NCBI GenBank assembly: GCA_043826505.1
Contig: JBDRQC010000004.1
Coordinates: forward strand, 524,974 to 588,973
DNA from: Chrysiogenia bacterium
Lineage (GTDB): Bacteria; Acidobacteriota; Aminicenantia; UBA2199
Length of the DNA stretch: 64,000 nucleotides
Direction: 5' to 3'
How positions within the stretch are numbered: the stretch's first letter is position 1; each line of letters starts with the position of its first letter. Of the stretch, positions 22,618 to 41,347 are shown in pieces. Under the pieces are notes generated by a model. The model saw only the letters and a list, made by a program, of their open reading frames with translations. It was not told the origin of the DNA and did not search any database. Position numbers and translations under genes: made by a program.

Positions 22618-22760
22618 TGTTCGCCCGGCGGATCGCTCCGCGCAAGCTAGGTGATTATATACGATTTTATGAGCGATTATCTCAGGAGAAATTGGCCTTA
22701 AATCACGCAGCGTCACCGGTCTTCTCCAGCCGATCGCTGACCTCTCCCCGCGCCGCCATG

Positions 22761-23201
22761 TCACATGCCCGTGATGGAGCGCTGCACGAATGCCAGCACG
22801 GCCATGGCCAGGAACAGGATGATCGCCGCCACGCTCCAGGACTTTCCGGCGAGCGCGGCCACTCCCAGCATGCCGCCCGAGGCGGCGAAAAAAAGCGTGA
22901 CGTAGGCGATGGTCATCCAGCGTACCTGGCGAAAATCGATCTTGAAGATGTAATCGAGCAGTGCCTCCGCCACAAGATAGACCAGCAGCAGGACAATCTG
23001 GATATAATATAGAGCGGGCCTTTGCAGCGGCGGCGCCTTGGCCAGAAGGTACGCCAGCGGCACGGCCAGAAGGAACAGGGCATAGCCCAGGTAATGCTCG
23101 AGGCGCGGCCGGCCCGCCAGCCTGGCAACAAAAATTAAAATGACCAGAACGTAATACACGATGGCCACGATCGCACCCAGCAGGTTTGTTTTCTCCAGCA
23201 T
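22761..23201 (-). CDS. hypothetical integral membrane protein
   Basis: 146 aa, 4-5 TM helices. Confidence 0.45.
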   Translation of the reverse strand: MLEKTNLLGAIVAIVYYVLVILIFVARLAGRPRLEHYLGYALFLLAVPLAYLLAKAPPLQRPALYYIQIVLLLVYLVAEALLDYIFKIDFRQVRWMTIAYVTLFFAASGGMLGVAALAGKSWSVAAIILFLAMAVLAFVQRSITGM

Positions 23202-23337
23202 CTCCTCCTCCCCGGAACTCAGGAACTCAGGGACGGACTGTTAATCTGTGTATCCTTTTGCCGCCCAGCGTTTGTGATTCTGGTCATCAATTTTAAAAAA
23301 GCTATAATGAAAGACCTGACACCATTGCCTCTCCGAA

Positions 23338-23766
23338 TTACTTTTCCATTGACACGATAAGCAATTTATCCTGCACCGGTCTGATCTTGAAAGTAAGCAC
23401 AATGCCTTTCCGGAAAGGCCACAATTCCTTGAACTTTATTCCGGATTGAAGAGTGGGGAATCTCCTTTCAAGATAGAAAGCGAGTTCTTTTTCCTGCAAT
23501 TCTCCTGCCAGTACCCGCACGTTAATAAAATTTGCCCGGTACAGAGTATATTCGTAGTCTCCCTCTGTTACCCTTACCAGCGGCAGCAGGTTGCTAAGCT
23601 GTGCCGTGACTTTGATCTGGAACTCATTCTCACTGTACCAGGGGATAAGGTTTTCCCTGGTGTAAGCGTTGACCTGTGCGGCCATCTCCGGCATGACAGT
23701 GATTTTTGATTCGGCAATAACCGCAAGCGAACAGAATAACAGGGTAATGGCCAAACTTTTTCTCAT
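23338..23766 (-). CDS. hypothetical secreted protein
   Basis: Signal peptide MRKSLAITLLFCSLAVIA; about 20 bp before its TAA stop on the plus strand, i.e. 5 nt downstream in gene sense, sits a copy of the array motif. Confidence 0.5.
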   Translation of the reverse strand: MRKSLAITLLFCSLAVIAESKITVMPEMAAQVNAYTRENLIPWYSENEFQIKVTAQLSNLLPLVRVTEGDYEYTLYRANFINVRVLAGELQEKELAFYLERRFPTLQSGIKFKELWPFRKGIVLTFKIRPVQDKLLIVSMEK

Positions 23767-23927
23767 ATGTTCTCCTCATGAACAAGCGGGATCAAATCTC
23801 ATTTTCAGAAATTTGCGCCGATCTCAAGCATCGCCCCAGTTCCTTCTATCCCGGAAACTTCATTTCTATTTTTTTCCTGAATTCACAAAGTCAAGCACCA
23901 GCCCCGATATTCCCGAGGCCCCCCGCC

Positions 23928-24725
23928 TCAATTCTCGGCCCAGGGCTTGAACAGCCGACGGTACTGCTCCGGCGTCCTGACGACCTCGTGGTACCAGACC
24001 GGAAAAAGATACTCGCACTCCTCGCACTTGGCCAGCGCTTTCTCCAGCCGGGCTGTTTTTTCGGCAATCGCGTCCAGCCAGGCCTGCGGCGGCTTGTGCA
24101 GGAGCTCGAACTTCGCGATGGCGCGGACAGGGATGCGCTTCACCTTGGCCGGCGCCAGTTTCATGTAATAAGACAGCGAGTTCTCACTTACCCTCTCAAT
24201 AAGATACACTCCGTCGGGGATCTCGGTAAAGACCGGGATGGATTCGTGCAGGAGGTAGATATTGGAGGTGGTTATGGTCCTGCTCAGAACAACGGCCGAG
24301 CCTTCCTTCTTTGGCTCGGTGCGCTCGGAGACCTTGGTCTCTTTGACATAAAGCTGGCGGTAGGTGATGTCCTCCAGGTAGTATACGACGGGCTGGCGGC
24401 CCTTGTAGTTGAAGCCGCCCACGGCGCCGTTGGCAAAGTACCTGTGCCCGGTCCAGGGCTCCAGGGCGAGGAAATCTAAATCCAGGAACACCGGCAGCTT
24501 GAAGTCGGAATTGACACTGACGGGTGTCTCGGTGATGTAAAAGCCGTTGACGTCCCAGTAGCGCTGGTAGCCTCCCCTGGCCGCCAGGACTGCCCCTTCG
24601 ATCACCGTGCCGTCCATCAGGGTGACGCGGCAAAGGGCCTGCAGGTCGGGATTCCCCAGGTCGGCCTGCAGGAACTGCCAGCCGCCCAGGGCCAGGACGA
24701 TCAGCATGGTTATCTTGATTTTCAT
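23928..24725 (-). CDS. hypothetical secreted protein
   Basis: Likely start MKIKITMLIVLALGGWQFLQA (signal peptide). Confidence 0.5.
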   Translation of the reverse strand: MKIKITMLIVLALGGWQFLQADLGNPDLQALCRVTLMDGTVIEGAVLAARGGYQRYWDVNGFYITETPVSVNSDFKLPVFLDLDFLALEPWTGHRYFANGAVGGFNYKGRQPVVYYLEDITYRQLYVKETKVSERTEPKKEGSAVVLSRTITTSNIYLLHESIPVFTEIPDGVYLIERVSENSLSYYMKLAPAKVKRIPVRAIAKFELLHKPPQAWLDAIAEKTARLEKALAKCEECEYLFPVWYHEVVRTPEQYRRLFKPWAEN

Positions 24726-24796
24726 TTTCCCGCCTCCACAGCCTGGCAAGCTATCACGAACCGCTTAAAATGAAATCCGCATTGTTGCGAATCGGA

Positions 24797-25069
24797 TCAA
24801 GGTTTCAGGACATCGCCCTCTTTCGCCGTGGTTATCTGCTCCATGGATACATTGAAGCCCGACTCCTGGAGAAAGGAGTGAAAGCAATCGGGCCCGGACC
24901 CCGAATACCCGAATTGGAAAATGAAGTTGCCCGGCAGGGTGATGGTCTGCCTTTCGAACACCAGGACGATGCGGCTGGGGCTCTTCGACTCCAGCCGCGC
25001 TTCGAGCAGCCGCCCGCATTGCGCGCGCAGGTCGGCGGCGATCTTTCTTCCCTCGGCTTCATAGGCCAT
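24797..25069 (-). CDS. hypothetical protein
   Basis: 90-aa ORF, no motif. Confidence 0.35.
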   Translation of the reverse strand: MAYEAEGRKIAADLRAQCGRLLEARLESKSPSRIVLVFERQTITLPGNFIFQFGYSGSGPDCFHSFLQESGFNVSMEQITTAKEGDVLKP

Positions 25070-25138
25070 GTTATTTTGCTCCTTTTTTTTGTTTTATTAT
25101 AAACAGTATCGCTTTAATTGCAACTGCTTCCTTCAATA

Positions 25139-25513
25139 TCAGGCATCGCCGGTGGGCGTTACCGTGGCGGCCTCGACCATCAGCACCAGGGTGCGCTCGG
25201 GGGCGCGCGGCCGGTGGCTCACACCCCTGGGAACCACGATCCCCTGCCTGGGAGTGAGTTCCACTGTACGATCCTTAAAATCGATAAACAGTATGCCTTC
25301 CACTACATAAAAGAATTCATCTTCCTTCTCATGTTGGTGCCAGTGGAAATCGCCCTTGAATATGCCCAGGCGCACCAGGGATTCGTTGACCTGGCACAGG
25401 GTCTGGTTGAACCAATTATAGTCACACGCCTTTTCTATAGCCCCGATATCGATCTTCTCCAATGCCCCGAACTTGATGTCGGTCTGGATCACATATTTCG
25501 TGTCTGGATTCAT
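25139..25513 (-). CDS. cupin domain protein
   Basis: Start MNPDTKY (ATG 25513); FHWHQHEKEDEFFYVVEG + VVPRGVSH cupin motifs. Confidence 0.7.
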   Translation of the reverse strand: MNPDTKYVIQTDIKFGALEKIDIGAIEKACDYNWFNQTLCQVNESLVRLGIFKGDFHWHQHEKEDEFFYVVEGILFIDFKDRTVELTPRQGIVVPRGVSHRPRAPERTLVLMVEAATVTPTGDA

Positions 25514-25548
25514 GTGTCCTCCTTTTTGGATTTTGGCTCCCGGCGCTC

Positions 25549-26199
25549 TCACCTTTTCAGCCAGGGGCAGACTTCCAGGCAGACCAGGCAGTTGTCGTCT
25601 CCCCGGCATGCCTTGACGTCCAGCACATCTTCCCGGCGTTCGGGGTGATCGGCAAAAGACACCAATCTTAAGGCGCCATACGGACATTGATCGACACACA
25701 GCGTGCAGTCGCCGCAGCGGTTCGCCAGCGGCTCGCCGGGCTGCAGGTCCAGGTTGGTCAGAACGGCGATCCAGCGGTGGACCGGGCCATACTCGGGCGA
25801 GACGATAAGCAGCGAGCGCCCCTGCCAGCCGAGCCCCGCCGCCTTGGCCAGCACCTTGAGCGACAGCAGCCCCAGGCGCCTGACCGGATCGAGCTCATCT
25901 TCAGGATGGATGATCAGGGCGAGATCTTCCTGCTTCTCCAGGTAAGCAGAAATCTGCAGCGCGGCTTTCTCCAAAAAGAAGTTTACATCGACGCCAGTCG
26001 CCTTCTCCCCCAGCTTGTTCAGCTGCGCTCCCAGGACGATCGCGTAGCGGAACTTGCCCGTCAACCCGGCCGGATCGCCGCCCATGCCTGCCGGCACTTC
26101 CCGCCGCCGCTCCAGATCGGCCACGCCGAACAGGTCCACTCCCATTTTACAGGCAAGGGCTCTCAATTCCGCTGTATGATCCATATCTTCTATCTCCAA
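25549..26199 (-). CDS. 4Fe-4S dicluster domain protein (epoxyqueuosine-reductase/RDH-like C-terminal region)
   Basis: CGDCTLCVDQCPYGAL and CLVCLEVCPW ferredoxin-type motifs. Confidence 0.55.
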   Translation of the reverse strand: MEIEDMDHTAELRALACKMGVDLFGVADLERRREVPAGMGGDPAGLTGKFRYAIVLGAQLNKLGEKATGVDVNFFLEKAALQISAYLEKQEDLALIIHPEDELDPVRRLGLLSLKVLAKAAGLGWQGRSLLIVSPEYGPVHRWIAVLTNLDLQPGEPLANRCGDCTLCVDQCPYGALRLVSFADHPERREDVLDVKACRGDDNCLVCLEVCPWLKR

Positions 26200-26236
26200 T
26201 GTCTAATATTGAGACCTGACCCCGTTGGCCCATTCC

Positions 26237-26932
26237 TCAATAGGCAACCACCTTTCCTTCAACAAGCCGGATGGGCGGATAGCCGGACATGGGATAAGAA
26301 TAATGAGTCTGCGTCATCTTCCAGTTTCCTTCTTTCTTGATGAGCACCATTGAAATCCGGATCGGCCAGACAAATGTTTCTCCCAATTCGGTGTGCTTGA
26401 GCACCATGCCGGCATCCCAGATGGCGGTAAAAAGCTTGATCCGAGCCGTTTTGGCCGCGTCTTTTTCCAGTTCGGCCAATCGTCTCAAGCAGCGGGCCAT
26501 GTTCTCTTCATTGCTCCTGCCAAAACCGTTTCCCGGGCTCTTGGTCACCGTCGCCGACATTGCCACGATCGCCACGTCCGGCGTTAAAATTCTAATATCG
26601 GGGTTATCCACATCCGCTTCCATTACGCCCCACCTCTTCCAGTCATTCGCGAATAACTCTTCCGCCTTGTCTATTCCCGTCTGCCATTCACCTGTATGGG
26701 GAAAGACACCGTTGGTACCCATGACACAAACATCATCGGTCATCAATTCCCGGACCCATTCCCCAACCTTTGACAGATCCCTTCCAGTATATCCATCCTG
26801 GAATTTCTTCAGGAATTCCTTCACTTCATCGCGTACTTTCCGGCCCGGATCGTTTTCCTGGCCGTTTAAACGCACCTGAAAGCAAGTCAGGACAAGAATA
26901 CTAAGAAGGATTGCCTTGCCTTTACATAGCAT
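26237..26932 (-). CDS. secreted SnoaL-like/DUF4440 family protein
   Basis: Signal peptide; NTF2-like length and pattern; stop codon at 26237-26239 with motif A at 26211-26230, i.e. 6 nt downstream of it in gene sense. Confidence 0.45.
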   Translation of the reverse strand: MLCKGKAILLSILVLTCFQVRLNGQENDPGRKVRDEVKEFLKKFQDGYTGRDLSKVGEWVRELMTDDVCVMGTNGVFPHTGEWQTGIDKAEELFANDWKRWGVMEADVDNPDIRILTPDVAIVAMSATVTKSPGNGFGRSNEENMARCLRRLAELEKDAAKTARIKLFTAIWDAGMVLKHTELGETFVWPIRISMVLIKKEGNWKMTQTHYSYPMSGYPPIRLVEGKVVAY

Positions 26933-27084
26933 TGTTCAACCTCCATTTTCAAACTATGGGCAGAAGGCGCTTTTTTTGATTTTTGCACCTTTGATAGGCC
27001 CTGTAAAATCTATAGTTCCTTGGTTCCTGGTTTTTCATTATTACTTCATCCCAGGAATCATTTGTAAAAACGTAAGACCTGACC

Positions 27085-27450
27085 TCATGTGTCAATATTT
27101 CCCTGATCTTTCGCTTTCCTCTTTGCACTTTTTTTCCATTTCGGTTTCGGAAGCGGAAGTTCTTGCGCGGTAATCCTGATCAAGCCGCTGAGCCATTCCT
27201 GGTCTTCATATGCATCTCCTATTAAAAAGCACAACTTGGCTCCGGGATAGGGCGGGGCTTCAACAACATCGCCTATATATGCCCTGCCGCCTGCGGTCGG
27301 CTTCACAAAAAGCTTGTTGTCACAAACCAGGGCCACGACTTTATTGTTGCAATATATTACATACTCGCCGAACATTTGCCTGTGAGAAATAAATCCGGCA
27401 TTTTCCATTTGCCTTGCGATGAATTCAATGAAAATTTTATCAGATGCCAA
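27085..27450 (-). CDS. TfoX N-terminal domain-containing protein
   Basis: IEFIARQMENAGFISHRQMFGEYVIYCNNKVVALVCDNKLFVK matches TfoX/Sxy N-domain; TGA stop lies inside motif A. Confidence 0.65.
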   Translation of the reverse strand: MASDKIFIEFIARQMENAGFISHRQMFGEYVIYCNNKVVALVCDNKLFVKPTAGGRAYIGDVVEAPPYPGAKLCFLIGDAYEDQEWLSGLIRITAQELPLPKPKWKKSAKRKAKDQGNIDT

Positions 27451-27675
27451 TGCGAACTCCTTGTTCGGAAAAATGGTGACGTTGCTTGCTAATATGTATT
27501 TTAACCATGAATTAAATCGACAAGCAAGCTCTTTTGAAAGCTATCCCGGAAAACGATTCTGATTTATGCATGGCTGCAAGCATCGCCCGCAAATCCCTCC
27601 CGGGATATCAAAAAATTTTTGCGCTTTGACGGTCCGTCCCCAATGGCCTTTCAAATGCCTTCCGCAGAGGAACCA

Positions 27676-28119
27676 TCACGTCATGCGGACTTCGAAAACA
27701 TCCTGAAAATGCAGGACCACATGATAGGACCGGACCCGGATGGCGAACAGGGCGCAATCGGGTGCCGAAAGGAACTCCCGCAGAGAGGGATGCTTGCGCA
27801 GGAAAAGCTTCGCCGATTTTTCACGTTCCCGCCCGCGCAGCTCCAGCGCGCGGCCGATGGCGGTCATGCCCGCGGCTTGCTGGAAATCCGTTTCGCGGTT
27901 CGAACGGTCGTCGATGAAAATGGCGGCCCGCTTCCTGCTCTTCAGGTTCTTGTATTTGCTTGTCGGGCGCCTGGTGGCGAACAGGATGTGTTTCAGGTCG
28001 CCGCTGGCCGCAAAGGCCACGATGTTCTGGTATGGATAGGCCTGTCCCAGCGTGGCCAGAATGCCCAGCTTTTGCGCGGACAAAAGATCCGCGATGATTT
28101 TGCGCTGCGAACGCGTCAT
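27676..28119 (-). CDS. pyridoxamine 5'-phosphate oxidase-like FMN-binding protein (general stress protein 26 family)
   Basis: LGILATLG..YPYQNIVAFA...FATRRPTSKYKNLK pattern of PNPOx-like split-barrel. Confidence 0.6.
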   Translation of the reverse strand: MTRSQRKIIADLLSAQKLGILATLGQAYPYQNIVAFAASGDLKHILFATRRPTSKYKNLKSRKRAAIFIDDRSNRETDFQQAAGMTAIGRALELRGREREKSAKLFLRKHPSLREFLSAPDCALFAIRVRSYHVVLHFQDVFEVRMT

Positions 28120-28329
28120 CCAGTCACTCCCTGCCGGCCCCAAAATTTAAAACCTGTCATTTCAAGACCTGACCCTCATGCCCCGGTTTGCCTCGACTTC
28201 TCCGCCAGCCGATAGATGTCGCAGCCGCCGCAATACAGCCCACAATAGCCGTCGAGTTTTATTTCGTCCATTTAATTCCTCTATCGCAAATTGTCCAAAG
28301 TCAAGCACCTTCCCCAAAGGCCGATTTTC

Positions 28330-29283
28330 TTATGTCCTTTTTTCAATGGCTTTGTATTCAAGTTCGGAGGCAGACCGAAAGTTGAAATTATAAAGCCAAT
28401 TTTCAAGATTTGACCAAATATCCTTTTCCTCTAATGGAGTCCGGGGTAAGTCAAAGTTCAGGGCAGAGAGGAGTTGGAAGCGATAAAGATCATAAGAGGA
28501 ACGGATGAGCAGACCATAGGAATTGGCCTTGGCCATAATTCCCTTGTAAGCCAGCCAGGAGAAAAGCGAGAGTGCGATGAATATGCCCCAGGCGATCCAC
28601 CCCCTTGGAGTTTGTCGACCAAAGTAAAATTCTCCCTGACAAAAAAAATGGAAAAAGGAAAATACACCAAGAAAAAAACTGAGGCAGGAGAAATGAATCA
28701 GGGTTATCATGGCGATAAGGTTTTCATTCAAGTTGTCCTGAATCACTTCCGGAATGAGTGGAAAAAGTCGTGGCCACCAAAACACGCCATCAAGTCCATA
28801 TATGGTTCGCGGATACATCTCCGCGGAACGGATGATGTTTCCAAAACACGTGGGCAGAAAAAACTTTTCCTCCGCCGGGTATCCGAAGTAGATTCTTGCT
28901 TGAAGTGAAGAGTAGCGATCGGATCCTTTTTCTGCTTCGATTCTTCTTGCATCGCATAACTTTTTCCATTTTTTTATGACCCGCTTTTGGAACAATTGCC
29001 GCAACCACTTGGGCCAGTATCCCTCAAAGATGCGCATGAGGTAATAGGAAACACCATGGACAATATAGGCGATCAGGGTGATAAGAAGCAGAAAAGTTAC
29101 CAAAACAAAAATTTGTTTGGGGACGCTCCAGGCCCCCCACGTCATGACAGGAACAACATATCCGAAAGGGAAATAGTATACCAATAGGGATATAATCGCC
29201 GCAGTGAAAGATGGGAACCAGCAGCAATGAATAAAGCTTCGGCTGAATACTCCGCTGAATTTTTCTAAAACTGTGTTGAACAT
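28330..29283 (-). CDS. hypothetical multi-pass membrane protein
   Basis: 317 aa, AT-rich, many TM helices; 13 bp downstream of the zinc-ribbon ORF (operon). Confidence 0.5.
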   Translation of the reverse strand: MFNTVLEKFSGVFSRSFIHCCWFPSFTAAIISLLVYYFPFGYVVPVMTWGAWSVPKQIFVLVTFLLLITLIAYIVHGVSYYLMRIFEGYWPKWLRQLFQKRVIKKWKKLCDARRIEAEKGSDRYSSLQARIYFGYPAEEKFFLPTCFGNIIRSAEMYPRTIYGLDGVFWWPRLFPLIPEVIQDNLNENLIAMITLIHFSCLSFFLGVFSFFHFFCQGEFYFGRQTPRGWIAWGIFIALSLFSWLAYKGIMAKANSYGLLIRSSYDLYRFQLLSALNFDLPRTPLEEKDIWSNLENWLYNFNFRSASELEYKAIEKRT

Positions 29284-29296
29284 GAGATGAGATTAT

Positions 29297-29596
29297 TCAA
29301 ATCAAAAAATTACTGCAATGAGGACAAATAGCCCTGCCTTTCTCCCACCTTGCCTCCTGGGAAAGGATTTTGAGATTACATGTTGTACAATCGAATGAAG
29401 AAAACTTGATTCCCGGATCACCAAAGGGTGTTGAACCCAAACCATCCATTTTTTCAGAATGTTCAGCCTGTGAATACTCCTTCTTTTCAATATCTTTTCC
29501 AGGAATTTCCTTATTGTCGCCTCCATTCCCGAATCCCCCAAAAGGGTCATCGCCACCGAATTCCCCATTAAAACTATCGCCTCCCAATTTCACCAT
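29297..29596 (-). CDS. small Gly-rich protein with C-terminal zinc ribbon
   Basis: N-term GGDSFNGEFGGDDPFGGFGNGGD; C-term CTTC...CPHC. Confidence 0.45.
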   Translation of the reverse strand: MVKLGGDSFNGEFGGDDPFGGFGNGGDNKEIPGKDIEKKEYSQAEHSEKMDGLGSTPFGDPGIKFSSFDCTTCNLKILSQEARWEKGRAICPHCSNFLI

Positions 29597-29858
29597 TTTT
29601 TACCTCCCCTCTAATCCGCCCGTATCCAGGTGGACAATCTCTAATCCTTTTTTTAAGCGTAATTGCAATAAAATTCAAGCTTTTTTTTCTGTTTCTGTTT
29701 TTTTTAAATCTACCCGTATGATTTTCATTTCATTCAATCAAAGTCACAAAGTCAAGTCCCCAAAGCCTGGTTCCGTCCCCAAAGTCTGGTTTTTCACTTT
29801 GCCCAAACCAATTGTCATGAAAGACCTGACACCGATGCCCAGTCAAACACAACTGTGC

Positions 29859-30269
29859 CTAGCCCTGCCTGCCATCCTCCTCGATCACCTTCCAGCCTTC
29901 GGTCCAATCCGCATACACCTGCCAGAATTTGATCTTATCATTCTCCACAACGGCTTTCCATGCGGCTGGCATCTCGATCCGGTTTTCAGGAACAAGCCCG
30001 CGTTTCCCGTTGTAGGTTCCGCAAGCCGACCCAAAAACAGCCACCATGCTTCCCTGGCGGAAAATATTCTCGACCTTGATCGTAAAGTCGGGAAACATGC
30101 GGAAATACTCGCCCCATCCTTTCGTCATCACATCCAGACCGGACGTCACCTTGCCGCTGGAATCAACAAAAACGTGATCCTCCGTCATAAGGCTGGAAAG
30201 TCGGGTAACGTCGCCCTGGTTGATTGCGGAGATGAAAGCCATCACTACATCAGTCTCGTTTGACTTCAT
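29859..30269 (-). CDS. nuclear transport factor 2 (SnoaL-like) family protein
   Basis: 136 aa; AFISAINQGDVTRLSSLMTEDHVFVDSSGK pattern typical of SnoaL/DUF4440. Confidence 0.6.
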   Translation of the reverse strand: MKSNETDVVMAFISAINQGDVTRLSSLMTEDHVFVDSSGKVTSGLDVMTKGWGEYFRMFPDFTIKVENIFRQGSMVAVFGSACGTYNGKRGLVPENRIEMPAAWKAVVENDKIKFWQVYADWTEGWKVIEEDGRQG

Positions 30270-30627
30270 CCGCTCCTCCCTTTTGCCGTAACTATTTCTT
30301 ATCTAAATCCTATCCCGCTACCCTGAACATTCATGCGAGCAGCAAATGGGTATCCGCTCAATTTCCACATTCACAAATGGAACTGTCATTTCAAGACCTG
30401 ATCCTCATGCCAGAAGAATATAAATGCCCCTTGTATTAGCAGGAATATTACGAATTTCTGTTTGCGGTCTAAATTCAGCAATTTGCTTTATAAATCTACA
30501 TTTGGACGTTGACATTAGACATTCTCCTTAACTATCATTGCTAACACTCTCTTTTGCAATGCCCCCACTTGAAGCCAAATATTAAAATAAAAAAATTTAT
30601 TATTCAAAGACTAGCCCTACTGTCTTC

Positions 30628-30984
30628 CTAAAAAAATCGCGCAATGATTCCCCAAATGAGTAATCCAAGCCCAACAAAAGTTACAAACATATTCACGGAG
30701 GTTATCCAATCTGGCACAGAATTAATATCGGCTTTTGTTGGATGGATAGAGGTGCGATCAAGACGTCGTATGTTTTCTTGAAGTCTTTCTTCTTTAATCA
30801 TATTTTCTCGAATACGGTCCCAGCGAGCCTTTGCGGATTCCATTGCATAATTGTGCATCACTCCCCATGACCAAAAAGAAAGGATTACAACAATCACACA
30901 TAACCAAAATAAAACAGGGTGCCCGGTCCCATAGAACATTATTCCTGCAAGCACGCTTAATATTAAACTTACAAAGCCACCCAT
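30628..30984 (-). CDS. small hypothetical membrane protein
   Basis: 118 aa, 2 N-terminal and 1 C-terminal TM helices, AT-rich. Confidence 0.45.
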   Translation of the reverse strand: MGGFVSLILSVLAGIMFYGTGHPVLFWLCVIVVILSFWSWGVMHNYAMESAKARWDRIRENMIKEERLQENIRRLDRTSIHPTKADINSVPDWITSVNMFVTFVGLGLLIWGIIARFF

Positions 30985-31300
30985 ACTTACTCCTTTGGAG
31001 GCATGATGGTCAGAACTAGAAAAATTAGAACCTTATAATTCAAGACATGACCCTCATGCCTTACTAACTACTTGACAGTGACCTTCTAATGGGCGTCCCC
31101 AATTCCCAATGATGACTGCTCCTGCAAGCCGTCACCGAAAGTCCTGCCTTCATCTACCATGCAGCTTCTCATGGCACACAATGGGCGTCCCTTTTGCCTC
31201 CTGTACGTTTGCCCAAGAGAGAGAAAAAGAGACGGGTCAAACTTCAGTAAACCGAACCCACTGAAAACGCAAGTCAAGAATAGCGTATACGTCGAGTTGC

Positions 31301-32419
31301 TTATCCCACCAGTACTTTTTTGACCTTATCGACGACGTAATGAAAATCGGATTCCGGCATATCCGGGTAGATAGGAAGTGAGACGATCCGTTTTTCGATG
31401 AATTCAGTATTCTCTAGCCCGGGACTGTCTGCGCATAAATCGTGAAACAAAGTGAGTTGATGGACGGCCGGGGAAAAATAGGAGGCGGTCTCAATTCCAT
31501 ATTCTTCCATTTTTTTCATGAATGCCTTCTTGTCGATTCCGAGCTCTTCGGACTCCCAGTATATTGTGAAGTCCTTGAAGTTGGATAGCGCCTCTGGCAT
31601 GACTTTCTGAAATGCAATGCTCGGAATACCTGCCAGGTTTTCCCGGTACTTCTGCGCCAGGTCGTTTCGCTGACGGATCTGCTCGTCAATCCTCCCGAGT
31701 CCATGCAACCCCATTATGGCACTGAATTCTGTCATCTTTCCATTCAGGCCCATATGCCGGCAATCGTATTCGCTTCCATATGTGAACCCGTAATTGCGGC
31801 GGTCTTCGACAGCGGTATGGATATCGTCCCGGTGGGTGGTGATCAAGCCTCCTTCACCGCATGGCAGTATCTTCGTCACGCTTAAACTAAAAACTTCTGC
31901 ATCGCCGAAGGACCCGATATGGCGGTCGCGCCATTTGGACCCGAAGGCATGGGCCGCATCGAAAAAGAGAGAGAGGTGATGTTCTTGAGCGATTTCCTGC
32001 AGTTCTGCGATCGGGCAAGGGTTGCCAAAGGCATGCAAAGCAAGGATAGCCGTGGTGTTGCGGGTGATGTGTTGGCGGATCGATTTGGTCGAAAGATTGA
32101 AGGTGTCGAGGTCGATATCCACAAAGACGGGTTTCAGGGAATTCCATAGAATGGCCTGGACTGTGGGCAGGAACGTGAAACTGGGGACCAGTACTTCCGT
32201 ACCTTTGGGCAATGTATTCAATATCAGCATCAACCCGGTGGTGGCATTGGCCACTGACAGGATATGCTTCACTCCGAGTATTTGTGCTACTTTTTCTTCC
32301 AGTTTGCACGAGTATTTGCTGAAGTTGGTCAATCGGCCCGAAGCGAGCATGTCGTGGACATAAGGCTCGATCTCTGCAAGATTTGGCAATCGGGGTTTTA
32401 CCAGGGGAATTTTTTTCAT
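31301..32419 (-). CDS. DegT/DnrJ/EryC1/StrS family PLP-dependent sugar aminotransferase
   Basis: MKKIPLVKPRL...; SFTFLPTVQA; ...SVTKILPCGEGGLI (PLP Lys region) typical of the family. Confidence 0.85.
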   Translation of the reverse strand: MKKIPLVKPRLPNLAEIEPYVHDMLASGRLTNFSKYSCKLEEKVAQILGVKHILSVANATTGLMLILNTLPKGTEVLVPSFTFLPTVQAILWNSLKPVFVDIDLDTFNLSTKSIRQHITRNTTAILALHAFGNPCPIAELQEIAQEHHLSLFFDAAHAFGSKWRDRHIGSFGDAEVFSLSVTKILPCGEGGLITTHRDDIHTAVEDRRNYGFTYGSEYDCRHMGLNGKMTEFSAIMGLHGLGRIDEQIRQRNDLAQKYRENLAGIPSIAFQKVMPEALSNFKDFTIYWESEELGIDKKAFMKKMEEYGIETASYFSPAVHQLTLFHDLCADSPGLENTEFIEKRIVSLPIYPDMPESDFHYVVDKVKKVLVG

Positions 32420-32424
32420 TTTAT

Positions 32425-33741: not shown

Positions 33742-33937
33742 TAGACCGGTGGTAACCTGGATTTCTCAACCGCCTTTTATTTTTCCTTTATTCTATTCTC
33801 TCTATCTACCCTATAGGCGCCAATTTTTGGTGAATCTCCGGTGTTGCACAAGTGTTTATGAAATTTCCACGTTTCCAGACACTGATAATCCCCCCACTAA
33901 AGAATATTCAAGTGATCAACATGACAAAGTCAAGAAG

Positions 33938-35545
33938 TCAAGCACCGAGCAAGCTCTCCCTTGTTCCATCTCCGATAATTGTTCCAAACTCATTTTTGTG
34001 GCAAATCACATCTATTTCGGTAAAATACTTTTCATTATACGATGAAGAATAATTGGCATTCTGAGGATTCACATTAGAATTGACAAGTTTTCTATATAAA
34101 ATACAAACATTTCCTCCAATCAGCACATCGCTTCCAATTATACTGAATGCAATATTGCAAAATGACATTATTCTTGTGCCTGACAGTATAATTGAATTCT
34201 TTATTATCGTATTTGCTTCAATAAAGACCCTTTCGTCAAGATTGGAATTTTCAACCAATACATTTTTCCCAATATAGCATCCCGCCTTTAATACACAAAC
34301 ACCTTCTATTGTTGCGAAATCATCAATAAATTTTGGGTTACATCCTATTGGTTTTATTATCATCCCATTTACTGCCGCTCGTGAACTAATCCAATTATCG
34401 GAGTCATTAATCCAACGAAATTTTCTGAATTTTTTATTATCTAGCAATTCTCTGAATTTACTTCCATTTGGATGATTATCGATTTTATCAGACATTTTAT
34501 TAGACATTGAATCTGACATTAATATTTCAACATCATATCCCTCAAGGTTCGGATGATCAAGCTCACACTTACAATTAGCTAGGTACCAATCAAGATAAGC
34601 TTCCTTAATAACTCGATCTGCATTCAAATGTTCCCAAGGAAAATTAATATCAAAACATACATTGTTGATAGATTCTTCTGACAAACAAATATCAATATTT
34701 GCTTTTCGGCTTAAATATGGGAAAATAAAATAATTTATAAAATGTTTAATAAAAAAATAATTGGCTATCTGGTTTTTTACATTTAAAATTTCTTTCCACA
34801 TTTTAGAATTCATTAGAATCAATCCAGTAAATTTTGCCAAAATATTTTCTTTATTTAAATAATTTTTTAAATTAAAAACTGGATATAACGGCCTATCAAT
34901 AACATCAACAACATTTCTGAAATTTATTTTTTTATAATTTATTTTGTTTTTGGTATCATCATGGGATCCCTTTTTAATTACAAAAAAACTTTGCAAATTA
35001 TGTGATTGGAATTTCACTTTTGATTGAATCGATTTTTCATGAAGATTCTTTGTAAAATCACTAGCAGCAAAAACTGCAAATGGGGATTTATTGACAATCT
35101 TTTTCTTAGCGGTTTCAAAAATAAAACTCCAAAAATCATCATGAATCAGGGTATCACCACAAATAACAATAATTGGATTTTTGTCAAATGACTCAATTGA
35201 TTTATAATAATTCTCTTTAAGATAATTAATACCTTCCACGATAGATGGAAAAATCCCCTGGGCAAATGATGATGACACTGTTGCGAAACAGACTATTCCC
35301 AAATATCTCTCGGAATTAAATTGGTTTTTTTACAAATCCAGATTATTTGGATCGGCAACTATACAAATTTTATTTACGAATTCTCTTTTTTCTTTTTTTA
35401 GCAAATCATCTATTAAAAACTGAATTGTGGTTTTATGATTTAATGGCAAAAGGTTTAAAAGTGGAGAAATTTTGAAGAAACTTGATATTCCACTGAATTC
35501 TTTTACCGTAGGAACTATTACATTATACTTTGCAATAGACAACAT
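33938..35545 (-). pseudogene. sugar-phosphate nucleotidyltransferase / left-handed beta-helix (hexapeptide) acyltransferase, split by a frameshift
   Basis: ORF 35330..35545 (KISPLLNLLPLNHKTTIQFLIDDL like the NTP-transferase PxLPxxxKPxI region) and ORF 33938..35302 (IVICGDTLI GD motif; C-term hexapeptide repeats IIKNSIILSGTRIMSFCNIAFSIIGSDVLIGGNV) are separated by a T7-8 run at about 35325-35331. Confidence 0.55.
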
Positions 35546-35991
35546 AGGTTAATTAATATTTACTCCATCTCAGTTCGATTTTTGACATATACTAGATTAT
35601 AATGAAGAATATCTGAAAATCAAGCGCTGCTCAATTTTTTTTGTTGATATTGTAATATTTATTTTTTACTGTAATTGATTTCATTGAAGGCTTCTTCAAA
35701 TCATGGAAAAGAAAATGAGAATCGTGTCTTGAATTAACAGGTCGATCAATAACCATTTTCACGAATATATTTGTCATTTCAAGACATTATACTAATACCC
35801 CATGCCCCCAATCTTCCCTATTAAGAGAAAGCTTGGTGCCAGGTCTTGCATTATCGCTTCTGCCAATGCCCAGAACAAGAATATGTTTTCAATTAGATAA
35901 GAAAACCCATTTTGTCATAATGTAAGACCTGACAGCATTTCTTCCTGTTCTTCCCTAGACGTACTTTCACTTTAAGAATACATTTATTATT

Positions 35992-37056
35992 TTATAACTT
36001 AATTGTTTTCTCATAAACAAATGCAACACTATACTTAGCCCTCGTAATTGCAACGTATAAACCCGCTTTAGTTCTGGGTTTAAGTTGTGATGAATCCTTT
36101 TTTGCCAGATATTCACAAATAGGTTTATTTGGAAAAATGAGTACGCGTTCAAAAGTCCTGCCTTTTGCCATTCCAAAATTAATTGATGGTAGCTCCATTG
36201 TGGAAGTCCTAATCGAATCTTTTAAAACAATCGGTTTAAATTTATTATAATAGTGAGGGACCTCACATTGCTTTATCACGAAAACACCATCATGCCCAGT
36301 AACATCAGTATTCTTTGAAATTGTGGGGATTAGCTCAGGATATAAATGGTCTGCAAAATCACAAATTGTTTGATTGCAACGAAAGCTCTCATTCTTCTGT
36401 ATAACCTCACAAAATCCTTTTTTTTTCCAGTCATTGAACAACTTAATGATATTATATCCTTTATATTTCTTGTTTTTGGGGGAACAATTTGTAAAATAAG
36501 TTGATTGTCTACAATCCCCTACAATTATTATATCAATCTTAGAACGAACTAATAGTTCTAAGAGATCAAAATCGTATCCAGCCATATCTTGTGACTCATC
36601 AATGAAAATTTGATCGAAAATTTGCTCAAGCCGTTCAATTACGAGTCCCTTAGATAGTTCATTGCACACACATGCAAATTCAGCGATCTTATCAGTGTAT
36701 ATCAATTCTCCGTTTTGAAGATAATATACTGCAGTATTCTTTCTAGGGACTCCTATGACAGACCTGCCTTCAATAAAAGAGATATTACTGATCCTCTTGA
36801 TGTCGTATAAAAAATTTTGATAAGGGCGTACACATTCTTGAAGTAGAAAGGAATACCAGGTAAGTATATGAAGATTTTTCGGAATACAACTGACTCTCTG
36901 TGAAATGAAATCATCAACCTGTTGCAAGTTTTCAATAGTATATGTGGTTATTAATGTTCGTTTGTTAATATTTTGAAGCGCCGCTTCAACTAAAATAGTC
37001 GTTTTTCTTGCACCCGCAGATGCAATTACTATTTTCTTACAAGCTGAAAGCATCAA
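35992..37056 (-). CDS. gajB: Gabija GajB, UvrD-like helicase
   Basis: IVIASAGARKTTILVE (Walker A), IFIDESQDM (motif II), GLYVAITRAKYSVAFV (UvrD C-terminal motif); overlaps gajA by 20 nt. Confidence 0.8.
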   Translation of the reverse strand: MMLSACKKIVIASAGARKTTILVEAALQNINKRTLITTYTIENLQQVDDFISQRVSCIPKNLHILTWYSFLLQECVRPYQNFLYDIKRISNISFIEGRSVIGVPRKNTAVYYLQNGELIYTDKIAEFACVCNELSKGLVIERLEQIFDQIFIDESQDMAGYDFDLLELLVRSKIDIIIVGDCRQSTYFTNCSPKNKKYKGYNIIKLFNDWKKKGFCEVIQKNESFRCNQTICDFADHLYPELIPTISKNTDVTGHDGVFVIKQCEVPHYYNKFKPIVLKDSIRTSTMELPSINFGMAKGRTFERVLIFPNKPICEYLAKKDSSQLKPRTKAGLYVAITRAKYSVAFVYEKTIKL

Positions 37057-38653
37057 GAATATATTGGGGGACTTTTATTGGAGAAGAATAATTGAAGAGC
37101 TTCAAAGCACACTCAGTCTTATTTTTTTCCTTACGCATGAATGACATCATTGATTCTTTATCTAAATCATTCCTAGAAAATATGGTGTTTAGTAAGCCAA
37201 GTTCATTAACCTTGGCAATTTGGCATTCTAACGTGGGATATTTATCATCCTTGTCATAACAAATTTTTATATTGGATTTTTTTAAATAATCACCATATCT
37301 TAATTCAATATTTTTTCTAAAGTCCCCATCATTATCAATAACAACCACTACTTTCTTTTCAAGCAAAGCCGCAATCTCAAGAAAACGCTTGAAGGAGAGA
37401 CTCCTGACAGATATCACATCGAAATCATCTTCGATTGGGAGTTTTCCATTCTTCTGAAAATATGCCTTTTGTACTATCAACTCATCAGAAGGACCTTCAA
37501 CGAGAATCGGCCGCTTCGAAATAATCAGTCGCAATGTGTCGTACCCCGGCAGCTTTTGAAAATAATCTTTTGTGCTATTTGAAAGATTTTTCAAAGAAGT
37601 AACCTTCTGTCCTTCTGCTAGAAGAATGACTTTATCAATACCAAGTTTGTTTAAAACAAAAGTGCTATGCGTAGTCAAAAGAACATGCTTTGACATGCAT
37701 TTTTCTTGAATTTTACTGATAAGATTATTCATTGTTGAATAAGATAAATGATTCTCAGGTTCCTCAATAAGTATAAGATGCGCATCTGTTGCCTTACGAT
37801 CAAGTGCAATTAGCATTTTCAATATACTTTGATCACCCTTCCCAATATGCTGAAAAGGTATTTCATCAAGATACGAAGTCAAATTGGTTTCCCAATTCGC
37901 CTTCTGGGTAATATCAACTGACACTTGAAGCTGTTTGTCAGAAATTTTTCCCTTCTCAGAAGCAAGCCTCGCATTAATCTTAGCAATTGCTCCTTGGTTG
38001 CTGAAGGTTTCTTTCAATCTACGATATTCCACTGCCAATTCAGCGCGTTCTTTAAGATCAAGAGAATCGTCAATTATTTTTTGAATATAATAGTCCGAAC
38101 CATATTGAAGCCGGATTGTAGTTGTGTCAATTAGTGTAACATTCATCCCAAGGCTTCGTTTTGTTATAGTCTTATAAGCAAAAGAAAACCATTGTACTTT
38201 GTAATACTCAGTTGGAATGTTTTTTATCTTACTTAAGTCGGAGATATAACTCAGGTATTCATCGGAAAAATCCTGGTTAAATTCAATTAAAAGTCTAATT
38301 CCCGGCGAATTGGTTTTTTTAGAGTTATTTGTACCCTTTAGTGCGGCAAATTCAGGATCATCCGTAAAATAAAGCTCAATCCAAATTTTTGGTGGGGCAA
38401 CTTTATTACCAGCGTTTAGTGCTGCAAAGTATTCTGAAACACACTCCCTATTAAAAAGATATGGAGAAAGTTCAAAGGCTATATTTCTTCCAAATAAATC
38501 TTGAGTAAGGCAAAGGTTGATTGCTTCTATTAATGTCGACTTCCCCGTTTCATTGTCTCCAACAAGTAAGGTCAACTGATTAGACAAATCTATTTCCAGA
38601 TGACGGAAGCATTTAAAGTTATGAACAATTATTTTATGAAAAATCATTCCCAT
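37037..38653 (-). CDS. gajA: Gabija GajA, OLD-family ABC ATPase-TOPRIM endonuclease
   Basis: N-term IIVHNFKCFRHLEIDL...LLVGDNETGKSTLIEAI (AAA_15/AAA_21), ILIEEPENHLS (Walker B/D-loop), C-term TOPRIM ILVEGPSDE...VVVIDNDGD. Confidence 0.85.
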   Translation of the reverse strand: MGMIFHKIIVHNFKCFRHLEIDLSNQLTLLVGDNETGKSTLIEAINLCLTQDLFGRNIAFELSPYLFNRECVSEYFAALNAGNKVAPPKIWIELYFTDDPEFAALKGTNNSKKTNSPGIRLLIEFNQDFSDEYLSYISDLSKIKNIPTEYYKVQWFSFAYKTITKRSLGMNVTLIDTTTIRLQYGSDYYIQKIIDDSLDLKERAELAVEYRRLKETFSNQGAIAKINARLASEKGKISDKQLQVSVDITQKANWETNLTSYLDEIPFQHIGKGDQSILKMLIALDRKATDAHLILIEEPENHLSYSTMNNLISKIQEKCMSKHVLLTTHSTFVLNKLGIDKVILLAEGQKVTSLKNLSNSTKDYFQKLPGYDTLRLIISKRPILVEGPSDELIVQKAYFQKNGKLPIEDDFDVISVRSLSFKRFLEIAALLEKKVVVVIDNDGDFRKNIELRYGDYLKKSNIKICYDKDDKYPTLECQIAKVNELGLLNTIFSRNDLDKESMMSFMRKEKNKTECALKLFNYSSPIKVPQYILDAFSL

Positions 38654-38947
38654 CTATAATCCCCTTCATTATTAATATAAAATCATTCAATTTCAGTAAA
38701 AACACTTAATTGTTTAAAACTTCTATTAGAAATTTCTTACCCATTTAGAATCAAGGGAAAATTCGGTGCCAGGTCTTTCATTAATACTTTTTGGCCAAAT
38801 CAAAATCAAGAGAATGGTTTCAAAAAGAGATTTAAAAATACAATTTTATTAGAAAAAAATATCTGCCCCATTTCATTCAAACAAATCTTAAAAATCAAAA
38901 CATTTGAAATTCATCTCAATCATACATTTGGCAGAATTCTAGCATAA

Positions 38948-39334
38948 TCAGACTTTCATCAGCAGATTCCTCGTACTTTTTAGGACTTGATCTAGTTTGA
39001 TTCTTTTTCTTTTAATCATCACATCTGTCCAAGTGCCCGGTTCCAACCAATAGCTACCTTTTAAAAAGCATCTTTCCGCCAGATCGCCATCAATATCACG
39101 AAGTGGGATGCTCGAATCATGCCAGAGTTTCGCTAAAGCCAACTCTCTTTTACGGTCTCGTTTTTTACCAGAATCCAAATCCTTAATGTATGCCTTTGTT
39201 TCATTAAGAGCTGCATAAAGAGCATATAACGCTTGGTCTATTCTTTCATTTCTATATTTATGACGATCTCTGATCAAGCCAAGTGCCGCTAAAAGTCGAT
39301 CAAAAATAGCAAATGTAACTTCATTCGGTGCCAT
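38948..39334 (-). CDS. hypothetical protein (orphan between Gabija and Mrr)
   Basis: 128-aa ORF, charged, no motif recognised. Confidence 0.45.
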   Translation of the reverse strand: MAPNEVTFAIFDRLLAALGLIRDRHKYRNERIDQALYALYAALNETKAYIKDLDSGKKRDRKRELALAKLWHDSSIPLRDIDGDLAERCFLKGSYWLEPGTWTDVMIKRKRIKLDQVLKSTRNLLMKV

Positions 39335-39598
39335 ATAACCTCCTAATAATTATCATAATCTAAAATAAAGAATTAACATTTTTTATCCTAGCTCCAATAA
39401 TGGCCTGGGGAAGCTTCTCAGGAGAGAGAGAATTCCTTTTGCATCCATAGATTGATTAAAAAATAAATTATAAGTTGTGGCGGACAAGAAAGAAAATTCG
39501 GGCCAGGCCTTGAATTGAAAGATCAATCATTGATCGTATTAAAAAAAACTGTCATTTCAAAACCGGACTCCAAGCATTGGAAATAACTACTTTTTATG

Positions 39599-40528
39599 CT
39601 ATATACTTTCATCAAAATAATCCATATCGATCTTTTTCACAGGATAGAGCGATACTGTCGATACTCCAATATCATTCTCTATCATCAGGTTGGTGAGTTG
39701 CTCCCCATCAATTAAAACAATCTTGCTTCCAATCTGAGAGACATAATTTCTAGCTTCATTAGAGAATCGAGAGGTTGTAATGAATATACCTTTATTTGCT
39801 TTCTGAGCTTGAAGAGCTCCGGCAAACTGCATGACATCCGGTCTGCCAACTGAATTAGTATCCCATCGTTTCGCCTGGATGTAAACGACATCAAGCCCAA
39901 GTCTATCCTCCTTGATAATCCCATCAATACCGCCATCTCCACTTCTACCAATTGCTTTTCCAGCGTCAGCGCGTGAACCTCCATAACCCATCTTTACAAG
40001 CAATTCGACAACAGCACGCTCAAAAAAGGATGGCGAAGATTTTTTAAGTCTGGCAAGAAGTTCGTCTCCCAGCTCATCTCGCAAATTTTCATAGGCAGTT
40101 TCAAGTGCCTCTGATGGAGTAGCCGCTGAAATGTCGGGTGTACCATCCGAGGAACTTACTTTCTCACCTCTTCGCGTCCCCTTGAGTTGCTGGAACTCAA
40201 TAAATTCAGGATACTGTCTGAGAAGTTTTACATTGATCACTTTAGGCTGCTTTTTGAGGAGATCTTGCCCACGCGAAGTAATTTTAAAATAGCCCCTTCG
40301 CGTAGCTTCGAGCAGACCAGCTTTCTTCATATAAGTAGCCACCCAGCTAACTCTATTAACAAGGGTTGATTGAATACCGCTTGGAAGCATTTCTTTCATG
40401 TCCTCATCTGTCAAGTTCAATTCTTTCGCTAGAGCTTCAACGGCTTCTCCTGTTGATGTCTCATCGTTTTTCTTTCCTGCAAAACGGAGAACTGGCAACA
40501 TCAAACTTTGATAATCTGGAACAGCCAT
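39599..40528 (-). CDS. mrr: Mrr type IV (modification-dependent) restriction endonuclease
   Basis: N-terminal Mrr_N winged helix; catalytic core GGSRADAGKAIGRSGDGGIDGIIKEDRLGLDVVYIQAKRW (Mrr_cat D-(D/E)xK). Confidence 0.85.
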   Translation of the reverse strand: MAVPDYQSLMLPVLRFAGKKNDETSTGEAVEALAKELNLTDEDMKEMLPSGIQSTLVNRVSWVATYMKKAGLLEATRRGYFKITSRGQDLLKKQPKVINVKLLRQYPEFIEFQQLKGTRRGEKVSSSDGTPDISAATPSEALETAYENLRDELGDELLARLKKSSPSFFERAVVELLVKMGYGGSRADAGKAIGRSGDGGIDGIIKEDRLGLDVVYIQAKRWDTNSVGRPDVMQFAGALQAQKANKGIFITTSRFSNEARNYVSQIGSKIVLIDGEQLTNLMIENDIGVSTVSLYPVKKIDMDYFDESI

Positions 40529-40765
40529 GTGTTAATCTCCTTTTTCTCTCAATTAACCTTTTTTATGCTTGTTCGGATTATTTTTCAAGTGCTGGATTGA
40601 ATTCATTTTACAAGCTCCCGCCGGTGGCCTTTGTGAGCTTTTTCAGGGGAGGACGAATTCTCTCATTATCCATGCGGCGAATAAGAGAAAAGTATAAATA
40701 CTAAAAACAAAACAAGCAATAGGGAAAAATGTAGTATTGGGGATCTCGAATCACAGCGACTAGAG

Positions 40766-41215: not shown

Positions 41216-41347
41216 CGTCACGCGTCACGCCAGGGCGGCCGTCCGCCAGGCGAAGCGCCGGCGGATCACCTCTACGCATGCCGTGTTTCTCTTTTTTCTT
41301 CAACCTCGAACCTCGAACTTCGAACATCGAACCCTCTTCCCCGTCTA

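Follow-up and report, generated by a model that had tools for sequence, protein, structure and literature searches.

The window analysed in this study is a 64-kb stretch of contig JBDRQC010000004.1, and its central part is occupied by a hypervariable array of genes that point in a single direction and whose spacers carry short repeats. Between 18.6 and 40.5 kb, all of the callable genes, ~28 in number, lie on the minus strand, and Pfam and PADLOC assign them unrelated functions. A preliminary description of this DNA, made from the sequence alone, had reported such a one-directional array with defence genes among its members and had read it as an integron-like cassette array. Both the array and its defence genes, Gabija and Mrr, were recovered in our analysis. 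The block is real, but the limits given for it (23.2-40.7 kb) did not hold, as it spans the interval from the end of a PDZ-domain protein gene at 18546 to the start of an NYN gene at 41400. The NYN protein is 100% identical to NCBI MFH2107778.1, which is encoded on a 788-kb contig of a metagenome-assembled genome (MAG) labelled 'Chrysiogenia bacterium', and the labels within its 90% cluster are Aminicenantes or Acidobacteriota. A 4.5-kb piece identical to this DNA occurs in SRR26275510. We read the locus as a probable flexible island colonised by transposase-associated repeats. Loci in other genomes and metagenomes are denoted below by L-numbers (L021, L120 etc.). The genes and flanks of the window that bear on the argument are as follows.

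17578-18546, minus strand: PDZ-domain protein gene (Pfam PDZ), conserved distal flank, 86% identical at the nucleotide level to L120 6352-7365
18547-41399, minus strand: hypervariable one-directional gene array (flexible island), bounds set by comparison with relatives
21219-21689 and 26237-26932, minus strand: two SnoaL_3/DUF4440 genes (Pfam)
25139-25515, minus strand: cupin gene (Pfam)
25549-26199, minus strand: Fer4 gene, 4Fe-4S protein (Pfam)
27085-27450, minus strand: TfoX_N gene (Pfam)
27676-28119, minus strand: PNPOx gene (Pfam)
29859-30269, minus strand: SnoaL gene (Pfam)
31301-32419, minus strand: DegT aminotransferase gene (Pfam)
35992-38653, minus strand: Gabija defence system, with GajA at 37037-38653 (PADLOC E 5.7e-202) and GajB at 35992-37056 (E 2.3e-119)
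39599-40528, minus strand: Mrr-type type IV restriction enzyme gene (Pfam Mrr_N + Mrr_cat; PADLOC mREase_IV E 3e-98)
40590-40700, minus strand: conserved promoter-like leader with GGCGGGAGCTTG at its end, immediately before Mrr, the first gene of the array
41400-42185, plus strand: NYN + OST-HTH/LOTUS gene (Pfam), conserved proximal flank, divergent from the array and syntenic in all relatives
42736-45972: mfd, next after the NYN gene

The two genes assigned to Gabija are adjacent and overlap by 20 nt, gajA encoding an ATPase with a TOPRIM domain and gajB a UvrD-like helicase, which is the arrangement that defines this system. The stretch at 31.3-35.3 kb encodes a hexapeptide transferase, a 438-aa protein without a Pfam match and the DegT aminotransferase. 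Further array genes encode an ICMT protein, an Asp/Glu racemase and many small proteins matching no family. The gene families named in the preliminary description were correct but two of its counts were not, since Pfam recognises three SnoaL-like genes rather than four, and a single cupin. The rest of the window is ordinary core, including SMC, a tricorn protease, a P-type ATPase, Mfd and a nucleotidyltransferase of the poly(A) polymerase/CCA-adding type. Pfam scans of all large open reading frames (ORFs) of the window revealed no integrase, transposase or any recombinase.

The abrupt changes in base composition from gene to gene that had been noted earlier were confirmed. GC content in the array genes ranges from 0.27 to 0.63 and GC at third codon positions (GC3) from 0.22 to 0.84 (standard deviation 0.19), compared to a GC3 of 0.64-0.93 (standard deviation 0.06) in 20 core genes of the window. 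GC3 also shifts from one end of the array to the other, from 0.22-0.36 in the NYN-proximal block at 33938-40528, which contains Mrr, Gabija and the hexapeptide transferase, to 0.75-0.84 in several distal genes (18612-26199), the most AT-rich genes adjoining the NYN end. Because GC3 is lowest in the NYN-proximal block and high in the distal genes, this gradient suggests that the NYN-proximal block is the latest acquisition.

The spacers of the array contain two related families of repeats, REP-A (GGGGTCAGGTCTTGAAATGACAG) and motif 2 (TGGGGACGGTGCTTGACTTTGTGAC), the former named after repetitive extragenic palindromic (REP) sequences. The recurrence of short motifs in the spacers had been reported before and is well supported: the 12-mer TCAAGACCTGAC, allowing up to 2 mismatches, has 15 matches in the window compared to 3.0 expected, and none of 100 shuffles reached 15. 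The REP-A core, GTCAGGTCTT, occurs with 0-1 mismatch in 13 copies in the window, 12 of which lie at 23.3-39.6 kb. Repeat profiles were then built from copies in other genomes and used in an nhmmer search of the window at E < 0.3. This search returned ten REP-A and four motif-2 copies, all 14 of them within the array and in spacers or at gene ends. Ten motif-bearing spacers were also folded as single-stranded DNA and compared with shuffles; two folded with z < -3.7, one with z -1.3 and the remaining seven with z >= 0. The copies, together with related elements found on inspection, are listed here.

23311-23328, minus strand: solo REP-A head downstream of a 142-aa gene; nhmmer E 0.046
23883-23908, minus strand: motif-2 copy (…GGTGCTTGACTTTGTGA); nhmmer E 1e-6
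26212-26226, minus strand: solo REP-A head in the SnoaL_3-Fer4 spacer; nhmmer E 0.056
27074-27088, minus strand: solo REP-A head right after the TfoX_N stop codon; exact core; nhmmer E 0.05
27455-27600, minus strand: motif-2-type element of ~130 nt, non-coding, a doublet of inverted heads (REPIN) or miniature inverted-repeat transposable element (MITE), with inverted motif-2 heads as its ends (…GATGCTTGCA…TAGCAAGCAACGTC)
28149-28180, minus strand: solo REP-A terminating a Cys-rich gene fragment, just upstream of the PNPOx gene; nhmmer E 1.5e-10
28296-28317, minus strand: motif-2 copy after a 317-aa gene; nhmmer E 3.7e-5
29738-29781, minus strand: motif-2 copy with two tandem TTTGGGGAC heads before it; nhmmer E 1.3e-4
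29821-29837, minus strand: solo REP-A head downstream of the SnoaL gene; exact GTCAGGTCTT core; nhmmer E 0.19
30380-30409, minus strand: solo REP-A terminating a GIY-YIG-like gene fragment; nhmmer E 8.7e-10; no hairpin beyond shuffles
30995-31066, minus strand: REP-A-derived hairpin (GGCATGAGGGTCA...TGACCATCATGCC); -12.7 kcal/mol, z -4.85; nhmmer match at 31039-31059
33924-33947, minus strand: degenerate motif-2 copy overlapping the 3' end of the hexapeptide-transferase gene; nhmmer E 0.03
35725-35800, minus strand: second, degenerate REP-A doublet; nhmmer E 0.0027
35830-35950, minus strand: REP-A doublet (REPIN-like hairpin), head 35924-35940, partner 35838-35849
38768-38777, plus strand: inverted half of REP-A (GCCAGGTCTT), located in the GajA upstream spacer
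39495-39582, minus strand: REP-A doublet (REPIN-like), head 39544-39563, inverted partner 39502-39513; nhmmer E 6e-4; fold z -1.3

The hairpin at 35830-35950 has a predicted energy of -19.6 kcal/mol (z -3.74), and none of 200 shuffles was equally stable. The degenerate doublet at 35725-35800 belongs to a family of ~85 nt that is also present in L006 and L110, with blastn identities of 80-83% to L006, L110 and L055. Homologues of the ~130-nt element at 27455-27600 were found in L126-128, L209, L123 and L124 (L126 9210-9319; L209 2868-2991; L123 ~5830-5965), and clean copies end in GGGGACGGTGCTTGCAAT…ATTGCAAGCACCGTCC. Since its ends are inverted motif-2 heads, we assign this element to the REPIN/MITE type and ruled out a small RNA or a riboswitch. 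Two other candidates were dropped. A sigma-54 promoter at the inverted half (TGGCAC-N5-TTTC) was given up on inspection of the sequence, as the -12 element is without the critical GC. Motif 2 was also considered as a core of the Xer/dif or invertase type (CTTGAC-N11-GTCAAG), but its right arm varies among copies.

Two of the solo REP-A copies coincide with the ends of broken genes. A Cys-rich gene fragment of 31 codons (CGLYCGGC) at 28176-28271 on the minus strand has a motif-2 copy on one side and a REP-A copy on the other. In L176 (731-865), a motif-2 copy truncates this fragment at almost the same position, to within a few bases, and L214 (~580-667) retains the whole gene. At 30405-30515 on the minus strand, a fragment of 36 codons (…NTRGIYILLA*) that resembles the start of a GIY-YIG nuclease ends within the REP-A copy at 30380-30409. 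Directly upstream of the REP-A hairpin at 30995-31066, the segment 31062-31151 (minus strand) gave a sub-threshold Rfam match to group-II-D1D4-2 (32.1 bits, with a gathering cut-off of 36), for which no D5/D6 partner was found and which we treat as unproven. The stretch 31064-31107 recurs beside REP-A in L086, L087, L142, L186, L055 and L168.

The origin of the repeats became apparent from their copies in other genomes. The REP-A 19-mer RTCAGGTCTTGAAATGACA was scanned in one genome per species and was found in at least 118 genome stretches, compared to ~9 chance matches, a figure estimated from the information content of the pattern and not a tool output. Most of these stretches carry a GGG prefix and many are in inverted pairs. 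Approximately 25 of the 131 genome matches listed were coincidental, lying in Bacteroidota glutamate dehydrogenase genes, and were excluded; the others have the common form GGG-GTCAGGTCTTGAAATGACA-G. In the excluded matches, the 19-mer occurs in frame within genes of the Bacteroidota type (…GGVATSGLEMTQN…) in L009, L018, L032, L041, L044 and ~20 more loci, and so inflates raw counts. The MAGs with REP-A are labelled Aminicenantes, Thermoanaerobaculia, Atribacterota, Desulfomonilaceae, Syntrophaceae, Clostridia, Caldisericales, Uhrbacteria, Planctomycetota and Thermodesulfovibrionales, among many phyla in all, and binning errors are possible for some of them. Clean inverted doublets, as in REPINs, were seen in Atribacterota, Thermoanaerobaculia and Aminicenantes loci, and copies were scattered on megabase contigs, with several sites on a 971-kb Thermoanaerobaculia contig. 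No copy of REP-A was found in viral contigs.

In L021 (6037+ and 6995-) and L028 (6835+ and 7751-), inverted REP-A copies flank a Y1_Tnp gene. Its product carries the HUH motif (NHYH) and scores 39.5 bits against Pfam Y1_Tnp, for which the cut-off is 23. Its best NCBIfam match is NF047646 REP_Tyr_transpos ('REP-associated tyrosine transposase'), at 74.2 bits against a cut-off of 80. At least 7993 clusters of homologues of this transposase were found, many of them named RayT or REP-associated tyrosine transposase (RAYT) by JGI and NCBI. Motif 2 shares the GGGG head with REP-A, 12 of the first 16 bases being identical, and was found in 90 metagenome contigs. In L162, L171, L196 and L204, inverted motif-2 copies ~950 nt apart flank a paralogous second Y1 transposase (MRRARLTYPGAFHHVMNRG…). 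Because inverted copies of both motifs flank Y1 transposase genes elsewhere, both show the relationship that defines RAYTs and REPs (PMC3116915, PMC5581495). At these other loci, the repeats occupy every kind of intergenic context and the orientation of motif 2 relative to neighbouring ORFs is near random (13, 12, 11 and 8 for the four arrangements of flanking strands), with REP-A behaving alike. The near-random orientation indicates that they behave as dispersed REPs, unlike attC sites, which are bound to cassettes. Collectively, these results show that the array repeats are copies and remnants of two related REP/REPIN-type (MITE-like) families. We could not find either family described, although they are a known kind of DNA; a full-text search for the REP-A core sequence returned no paper, motif 2 not having been searched.

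The two families resemble the REP/REPIN-RAYT systems of Escherichia coli and Pseudomonas (PMC3116915, PMC5581495) in that repeats of ~22-30 nt with a conserved head are over-represented outside genes, occur as singletons and as inverted doublets forming long hairpins, and in other genomes flank, as inverted copies, a Y1/HUH gene that the sources annotate as RayT. In contrast to those systems, the head is GGGG and not GTAG or CGTC, the copies in the window are limited to one gene array, and the protein, of ~285-300 aa with a C-terminal helix-turn-helix region, reaches 74 of the 80 bits set for the NCBI RAYT equivalog. Identical REP-A cores are also present across many phyla labels, and one Desulfomonilaceae MAG has several copies that bear a transposase. 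This is more reminiscent of an insertion sequence (IS) than of the RAYTs of groups 2 and 3, which are single-copy and inherited vertically. Elements of the IS200/IS605 type and their MITE derivatives share the Y1 HUH transposase (PF01797), the DNA hairpin signals and the expected single-strand, orientation-specific mechanism. However, IS200/IS605 elements end in non-inverted subterminal hairpins, whereas the elements described here have one sequence at both ends in inverted orientation, the arrangement seen around RAYT genes.

Type and number of genes at the locus differ between relatives while the flanks, the PDZ protease on one side and NYN-Mfd on the other, are kept. The turnover expected from a cassette array was thus found, the same flanks enclosing different content in L120, L122, L123, L124, L126 and L220, and the content ranges from 1 to at least 28 genes. 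L120, with a core ~90% identical to the window at the nucleotide level, has only Fer4 and a Fic toxin-antitoxin pair (3 genes and 2.7 kb, compared to 22.8 kb in the window). L220, a member of the 90% NYN cluster, has a single 138-aa gene upstream of NYN. L122, in which NYN is 89% identical at the amino acid level, has a mixed-strand gene set there, and L126, with a core 75-78% identical to the window, has 16 other genes. L123 and L124 have cores 96-98% identical to each other and a common distal segment (98.5%), and their NYN-proximal genes differ; the L124 array is also one-directional (4/4 genes). Single genes reappear in other gene contexts and are more alike than the core. The window and L126 have PNPOx genes with 88% identity and core DNA with 75-78%, and for the window and L123 the figures are 85% for the cupin gene and 75% for mfd. 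These comparisons show that gene content at this fixed spot turns over and that single genes are exchanged between arrays. The boundaries of homology around shared genes proved weak as evidence for cassette junctions, since non-coding flanks are unalignable anyway at 83-88% identity, and the L123/L124 junction, at 98.5% identity, is the only informative one.

The leader at 40590-40700 has counterparts with 81-91% identity in several relatives. They precede the first array gene in L123 (9640-9739) and L124 (4260-4341) and Fer4 in L120 (8128-8212), and L055 has two of them (7406-7553 and 4572-4702), each before a different defence-type gene. Relatives carry a sigma-70-like element ahead of the leader (TTGCAT-17-GATAAT/TATAAT), and we regard it as promoter-like on this basis. 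A structured RNA was considered for the leader and dropped, as no covarying structure was found; RNAalifold gave -3.8 kcal/mol and a single pair with a compensatory change.

Several further features lie beside or outside the array. Between the array and the NYN gene, at 41040-41230, there is a long imperfect low-complexity inverted repeat (AAATTCCAAATCACAAAT… and complement); similar sequence in L120, L124 and L055 makes it look like another MITE-like family. Two small genes (64 and 147 aa; GC ~0.48) at 16838-17581 on the minus strand, between the ATPase and PDZ genes, are missing from L120. In nucleotide sequence, the 147-aa gene matches a gene within the L123 array at 73% identity, so that gene insertion is not confined to the main array. 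At 8572-13695, the tricorn-protease and MscS genes of the window are missing from the syntenic L120 stretch and replaced by DUF1003 and LysE genes, so that gene content varies outside the array too. In L120, NYN and mfd are separated by an insertion (10953-13246) with a DruA-like gene and an IS66 transposase, on the opposite side of NYN from the array.

Taking these data together, the locus is probably a hypervariable flexible island at a fixed spot in the chromosome of an uncultured Aminicenantes-like bacterium, colonised by REP/MITE elements. It resembles flexible and defence islands in its fixed position between core genes, its strain-specific cargo with atypical GC, and its combination of Gabija with a type IV restriction enzyme. 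It differs from them in its unusually strict co-orientation, in its dense REP content and in having no integrase, tRNA gene or backbone of a phage or an integrative and conjugative element. Such an island would gain and lose horizontally acquired genes, Gabija and Mrr included, presumably through ordinary horizontal transfer and recombination with no dedicated integrase, and all of the array genes point away from the NYN gene, downstream of the conserved promoter-like leader. RayT-like enzymes encoded elsewhere may mobilise both repeat families into the spacers, where the repeats could have accumulated owing to long dispensable spacers and imported DNA. Y1 transposition, as in IS200/IS605, is strand-specific and replication-coupled. 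By analogy, the uniform orientation of the repeats might result from strand-specific, replication-coupled transposition of single-stranded DNA by Y1 enzymes. The repeats may also act as breakpoints for deletions and rearrangements, since two gene fragments of the window, the GIY-YIG-like and the Cys-rich one, end exactly at a REP head.

A number of observations weigh against this interpretation. The co-orientation of genes, at 28/28 in the window, 14/14 in L123 and 16/16 in L126, is stricter than in an ordinary island, and a common leader stands before the first array gene. All 14 profile matches to the repeats are on the minus strand, the orientation of the genes, and all lie at 23.3-39.6 kb, inside the array. 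There are none in the 6.6 kb of non-array intergenic DNA of the window, and for copies distributed uniformly across all 11.1 kb of its intergenic DNA, the probability of finding all 14 in the array would be ~3e-6. REP heads are located at breakpoints that carry information, namely the L123/L124 junction, the distal array end by the PDZ gene, the start of the PNPOx homology and the two sides of the Cys-rich fragment, which was met in three contexts. No Y1/RayT gene is present in the window, in which tblastn returned only a chance-level match within a radical-SAM gene. The confinement, the co-orientation, the leader and the breakpoints at REP heads would suit a directional, site-specific process just as well, and a site-specific gene-capture system other than an integron had been the second option of the preliminary description.

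One such process would be a cassette system driven by REPs and a Y1 transposase, an analogue of the integron without a tyrosine integrase, which we consider unlikely. A RayT-like HUH enzyme encoded elsewhere would excise segments bounded by REP heads as single-stranded circles, which would be re-inserted in one orientation beside another REP head, and the conserved leader promoter would express the array. This would account for REP copies that are confined to the array and co-oriented with its genes (14/14), and for arrays at the same locus in relatives that are also one-directional and have different contents. The block swapped between L123 and L124 extends from the leader end (GGGAGCTTG) to a REP head, in both the window and L120 the array ends distally at the junction of GGGGACGG with ATT, and the homology between the PNPOx genes of the window and L126 begins exactly at GGGGCCGG. 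The segment with motif 2 and the Cys-rich fragment occurs in two contexts (the window and L176), each time ending at a further REP head, single genes are more alike between arrays than core genes are, and GC3 is lowest beside the leader, as proximal insertion would predict. However, in other genomes the repeats have no fixed orientation relative to genes and occur in all intergenic contexts, the arrays of L120, L123 and L126 hold few or no REP-A copies, and several gene junctions, such as Fer4-cupin and the cupin 3' end, are without a REP. Most homology boundaries lie at ORF ends, which faster decay of non-coding DNA at 83-88% identity would produce with no site-specific process, and the differences between the window and L120 at several places outside the array look like general genome flux. 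A RayT gene was found near none of the arrays examined. To our knowledge, cassette-type activity has never been described for RAYTs.

Alternatively, the locus could be a hotspot served by other site-specific machinery, with the leader end (…GGCGGGAGCTTG) as an attI-like entry site and the REPs as passengers. Arrays that otherwise differ have the leader conserved ahead of their first gene, identity ends at GGGAGCTTG in the window, L120, L123 and L124, the two leaders of L055 precede different defence-type genes, and the most foreign genes by GC3 adjoin the leader. Nonetheless, a recombinase candidate is linked to the locus in no relative, the L120 leader lies mid-region, after the Fic toxin-antitoxin module, and not at the NYN end, and a leader that is only 81-91% identical could be an inherited promoter region. 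We give this explanation a slim chance. The integron reading of the preliminary description fared worse still in direct tests and, as a true remnant, is barely credible. In this case, the array would be a cluster of attC sites lacking an integron-integrase (CALIN), with attC diverged beyond the canonical cores and IntI encoded elsewhere in the genome. The array does share with sedentary chromosomal integrons and CALINs (PMC4889954) a one-directional arrangement, at a fixed locus, of mostly small, unrelated, compositionally foreign and horizontally acquired genes (~28/28 on the minus strand), a promoter-like region at one of its ends, quick changes of content from one relative to another and a defence cargo, and three of its spacers contain imperfect hairpins of 70-120 nt. 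The definition of a CALIN asks for two or more attC sites on the same strand, spaced by less than 4 kb, with R''/R' boxes carrying AAC/GTT triplets (PMC4889954). Both strands of the 64 kb were scanned for RYYYAAC…GTTRRRY pairs 50-150 nt apart, and the two R''…R' candidates on each strand all fell short of 6 complementary bases out of 7. The window is thus no CALIN by this definition, because it holds no attC pair with complementary R/L boxes, which agrees with the earlier report of neither canonical attC cores nor an integrase in it. An attC-like fold of the spacers, the lack of which that report had itself listed among its grounds for refutation, was missing at 7 of the 10 motif sites, which were no better than shuffles. 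Rfam gave no family at the gathering threshold in the window and none relevant at E-value thresholds. IntI was found neither in the window nor in ~20 kb around the NYN gene in six relatives, and the gene divergent from the array, where a complete integron would have IntI, encodes the NYN/OST-HTH protein. Moreover, the motifs are the flanking repeats of Y1 transposase genes and not of integron cassettes, homologous genes in different arrays have no common 3' recombination site, and several units are multi-gene operons (Gabija; the DegT-containing run at 31.3-35.3 kb), unlike integron cassettes.

A flexible island colonised by REP/MITE elements thus remains the interpretation we prefer. It removes a false lead, in that an array that looks like an integron but has odd repeats can be a flexible island rich in REP/MITE elements, and the repeats of this array are traceable to RayT-like transposases. 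Two REP families are recorded, and the core of one of them, REP-A, is identical across MAGs with labels from many phyla. Such a spread is unusual, since a REP is normally confined to one lineage and its transposase passed on vertically. For the uncultured lineage itself, the locus represents a conserved chromosomal hotspot with a quick turnover of defence genes (Gabija, Mrr) and of small accessory genes, all within an array that is strictly one-directional. If REP heads were the actual joining points, this would constitute a new mechanism of gene capture. A cassette system based on REPs and Y1 enzymes, if true, would be a second, independently evolved platform for gene capture on single-strand hairpins, and one that carries anti-phage systems.

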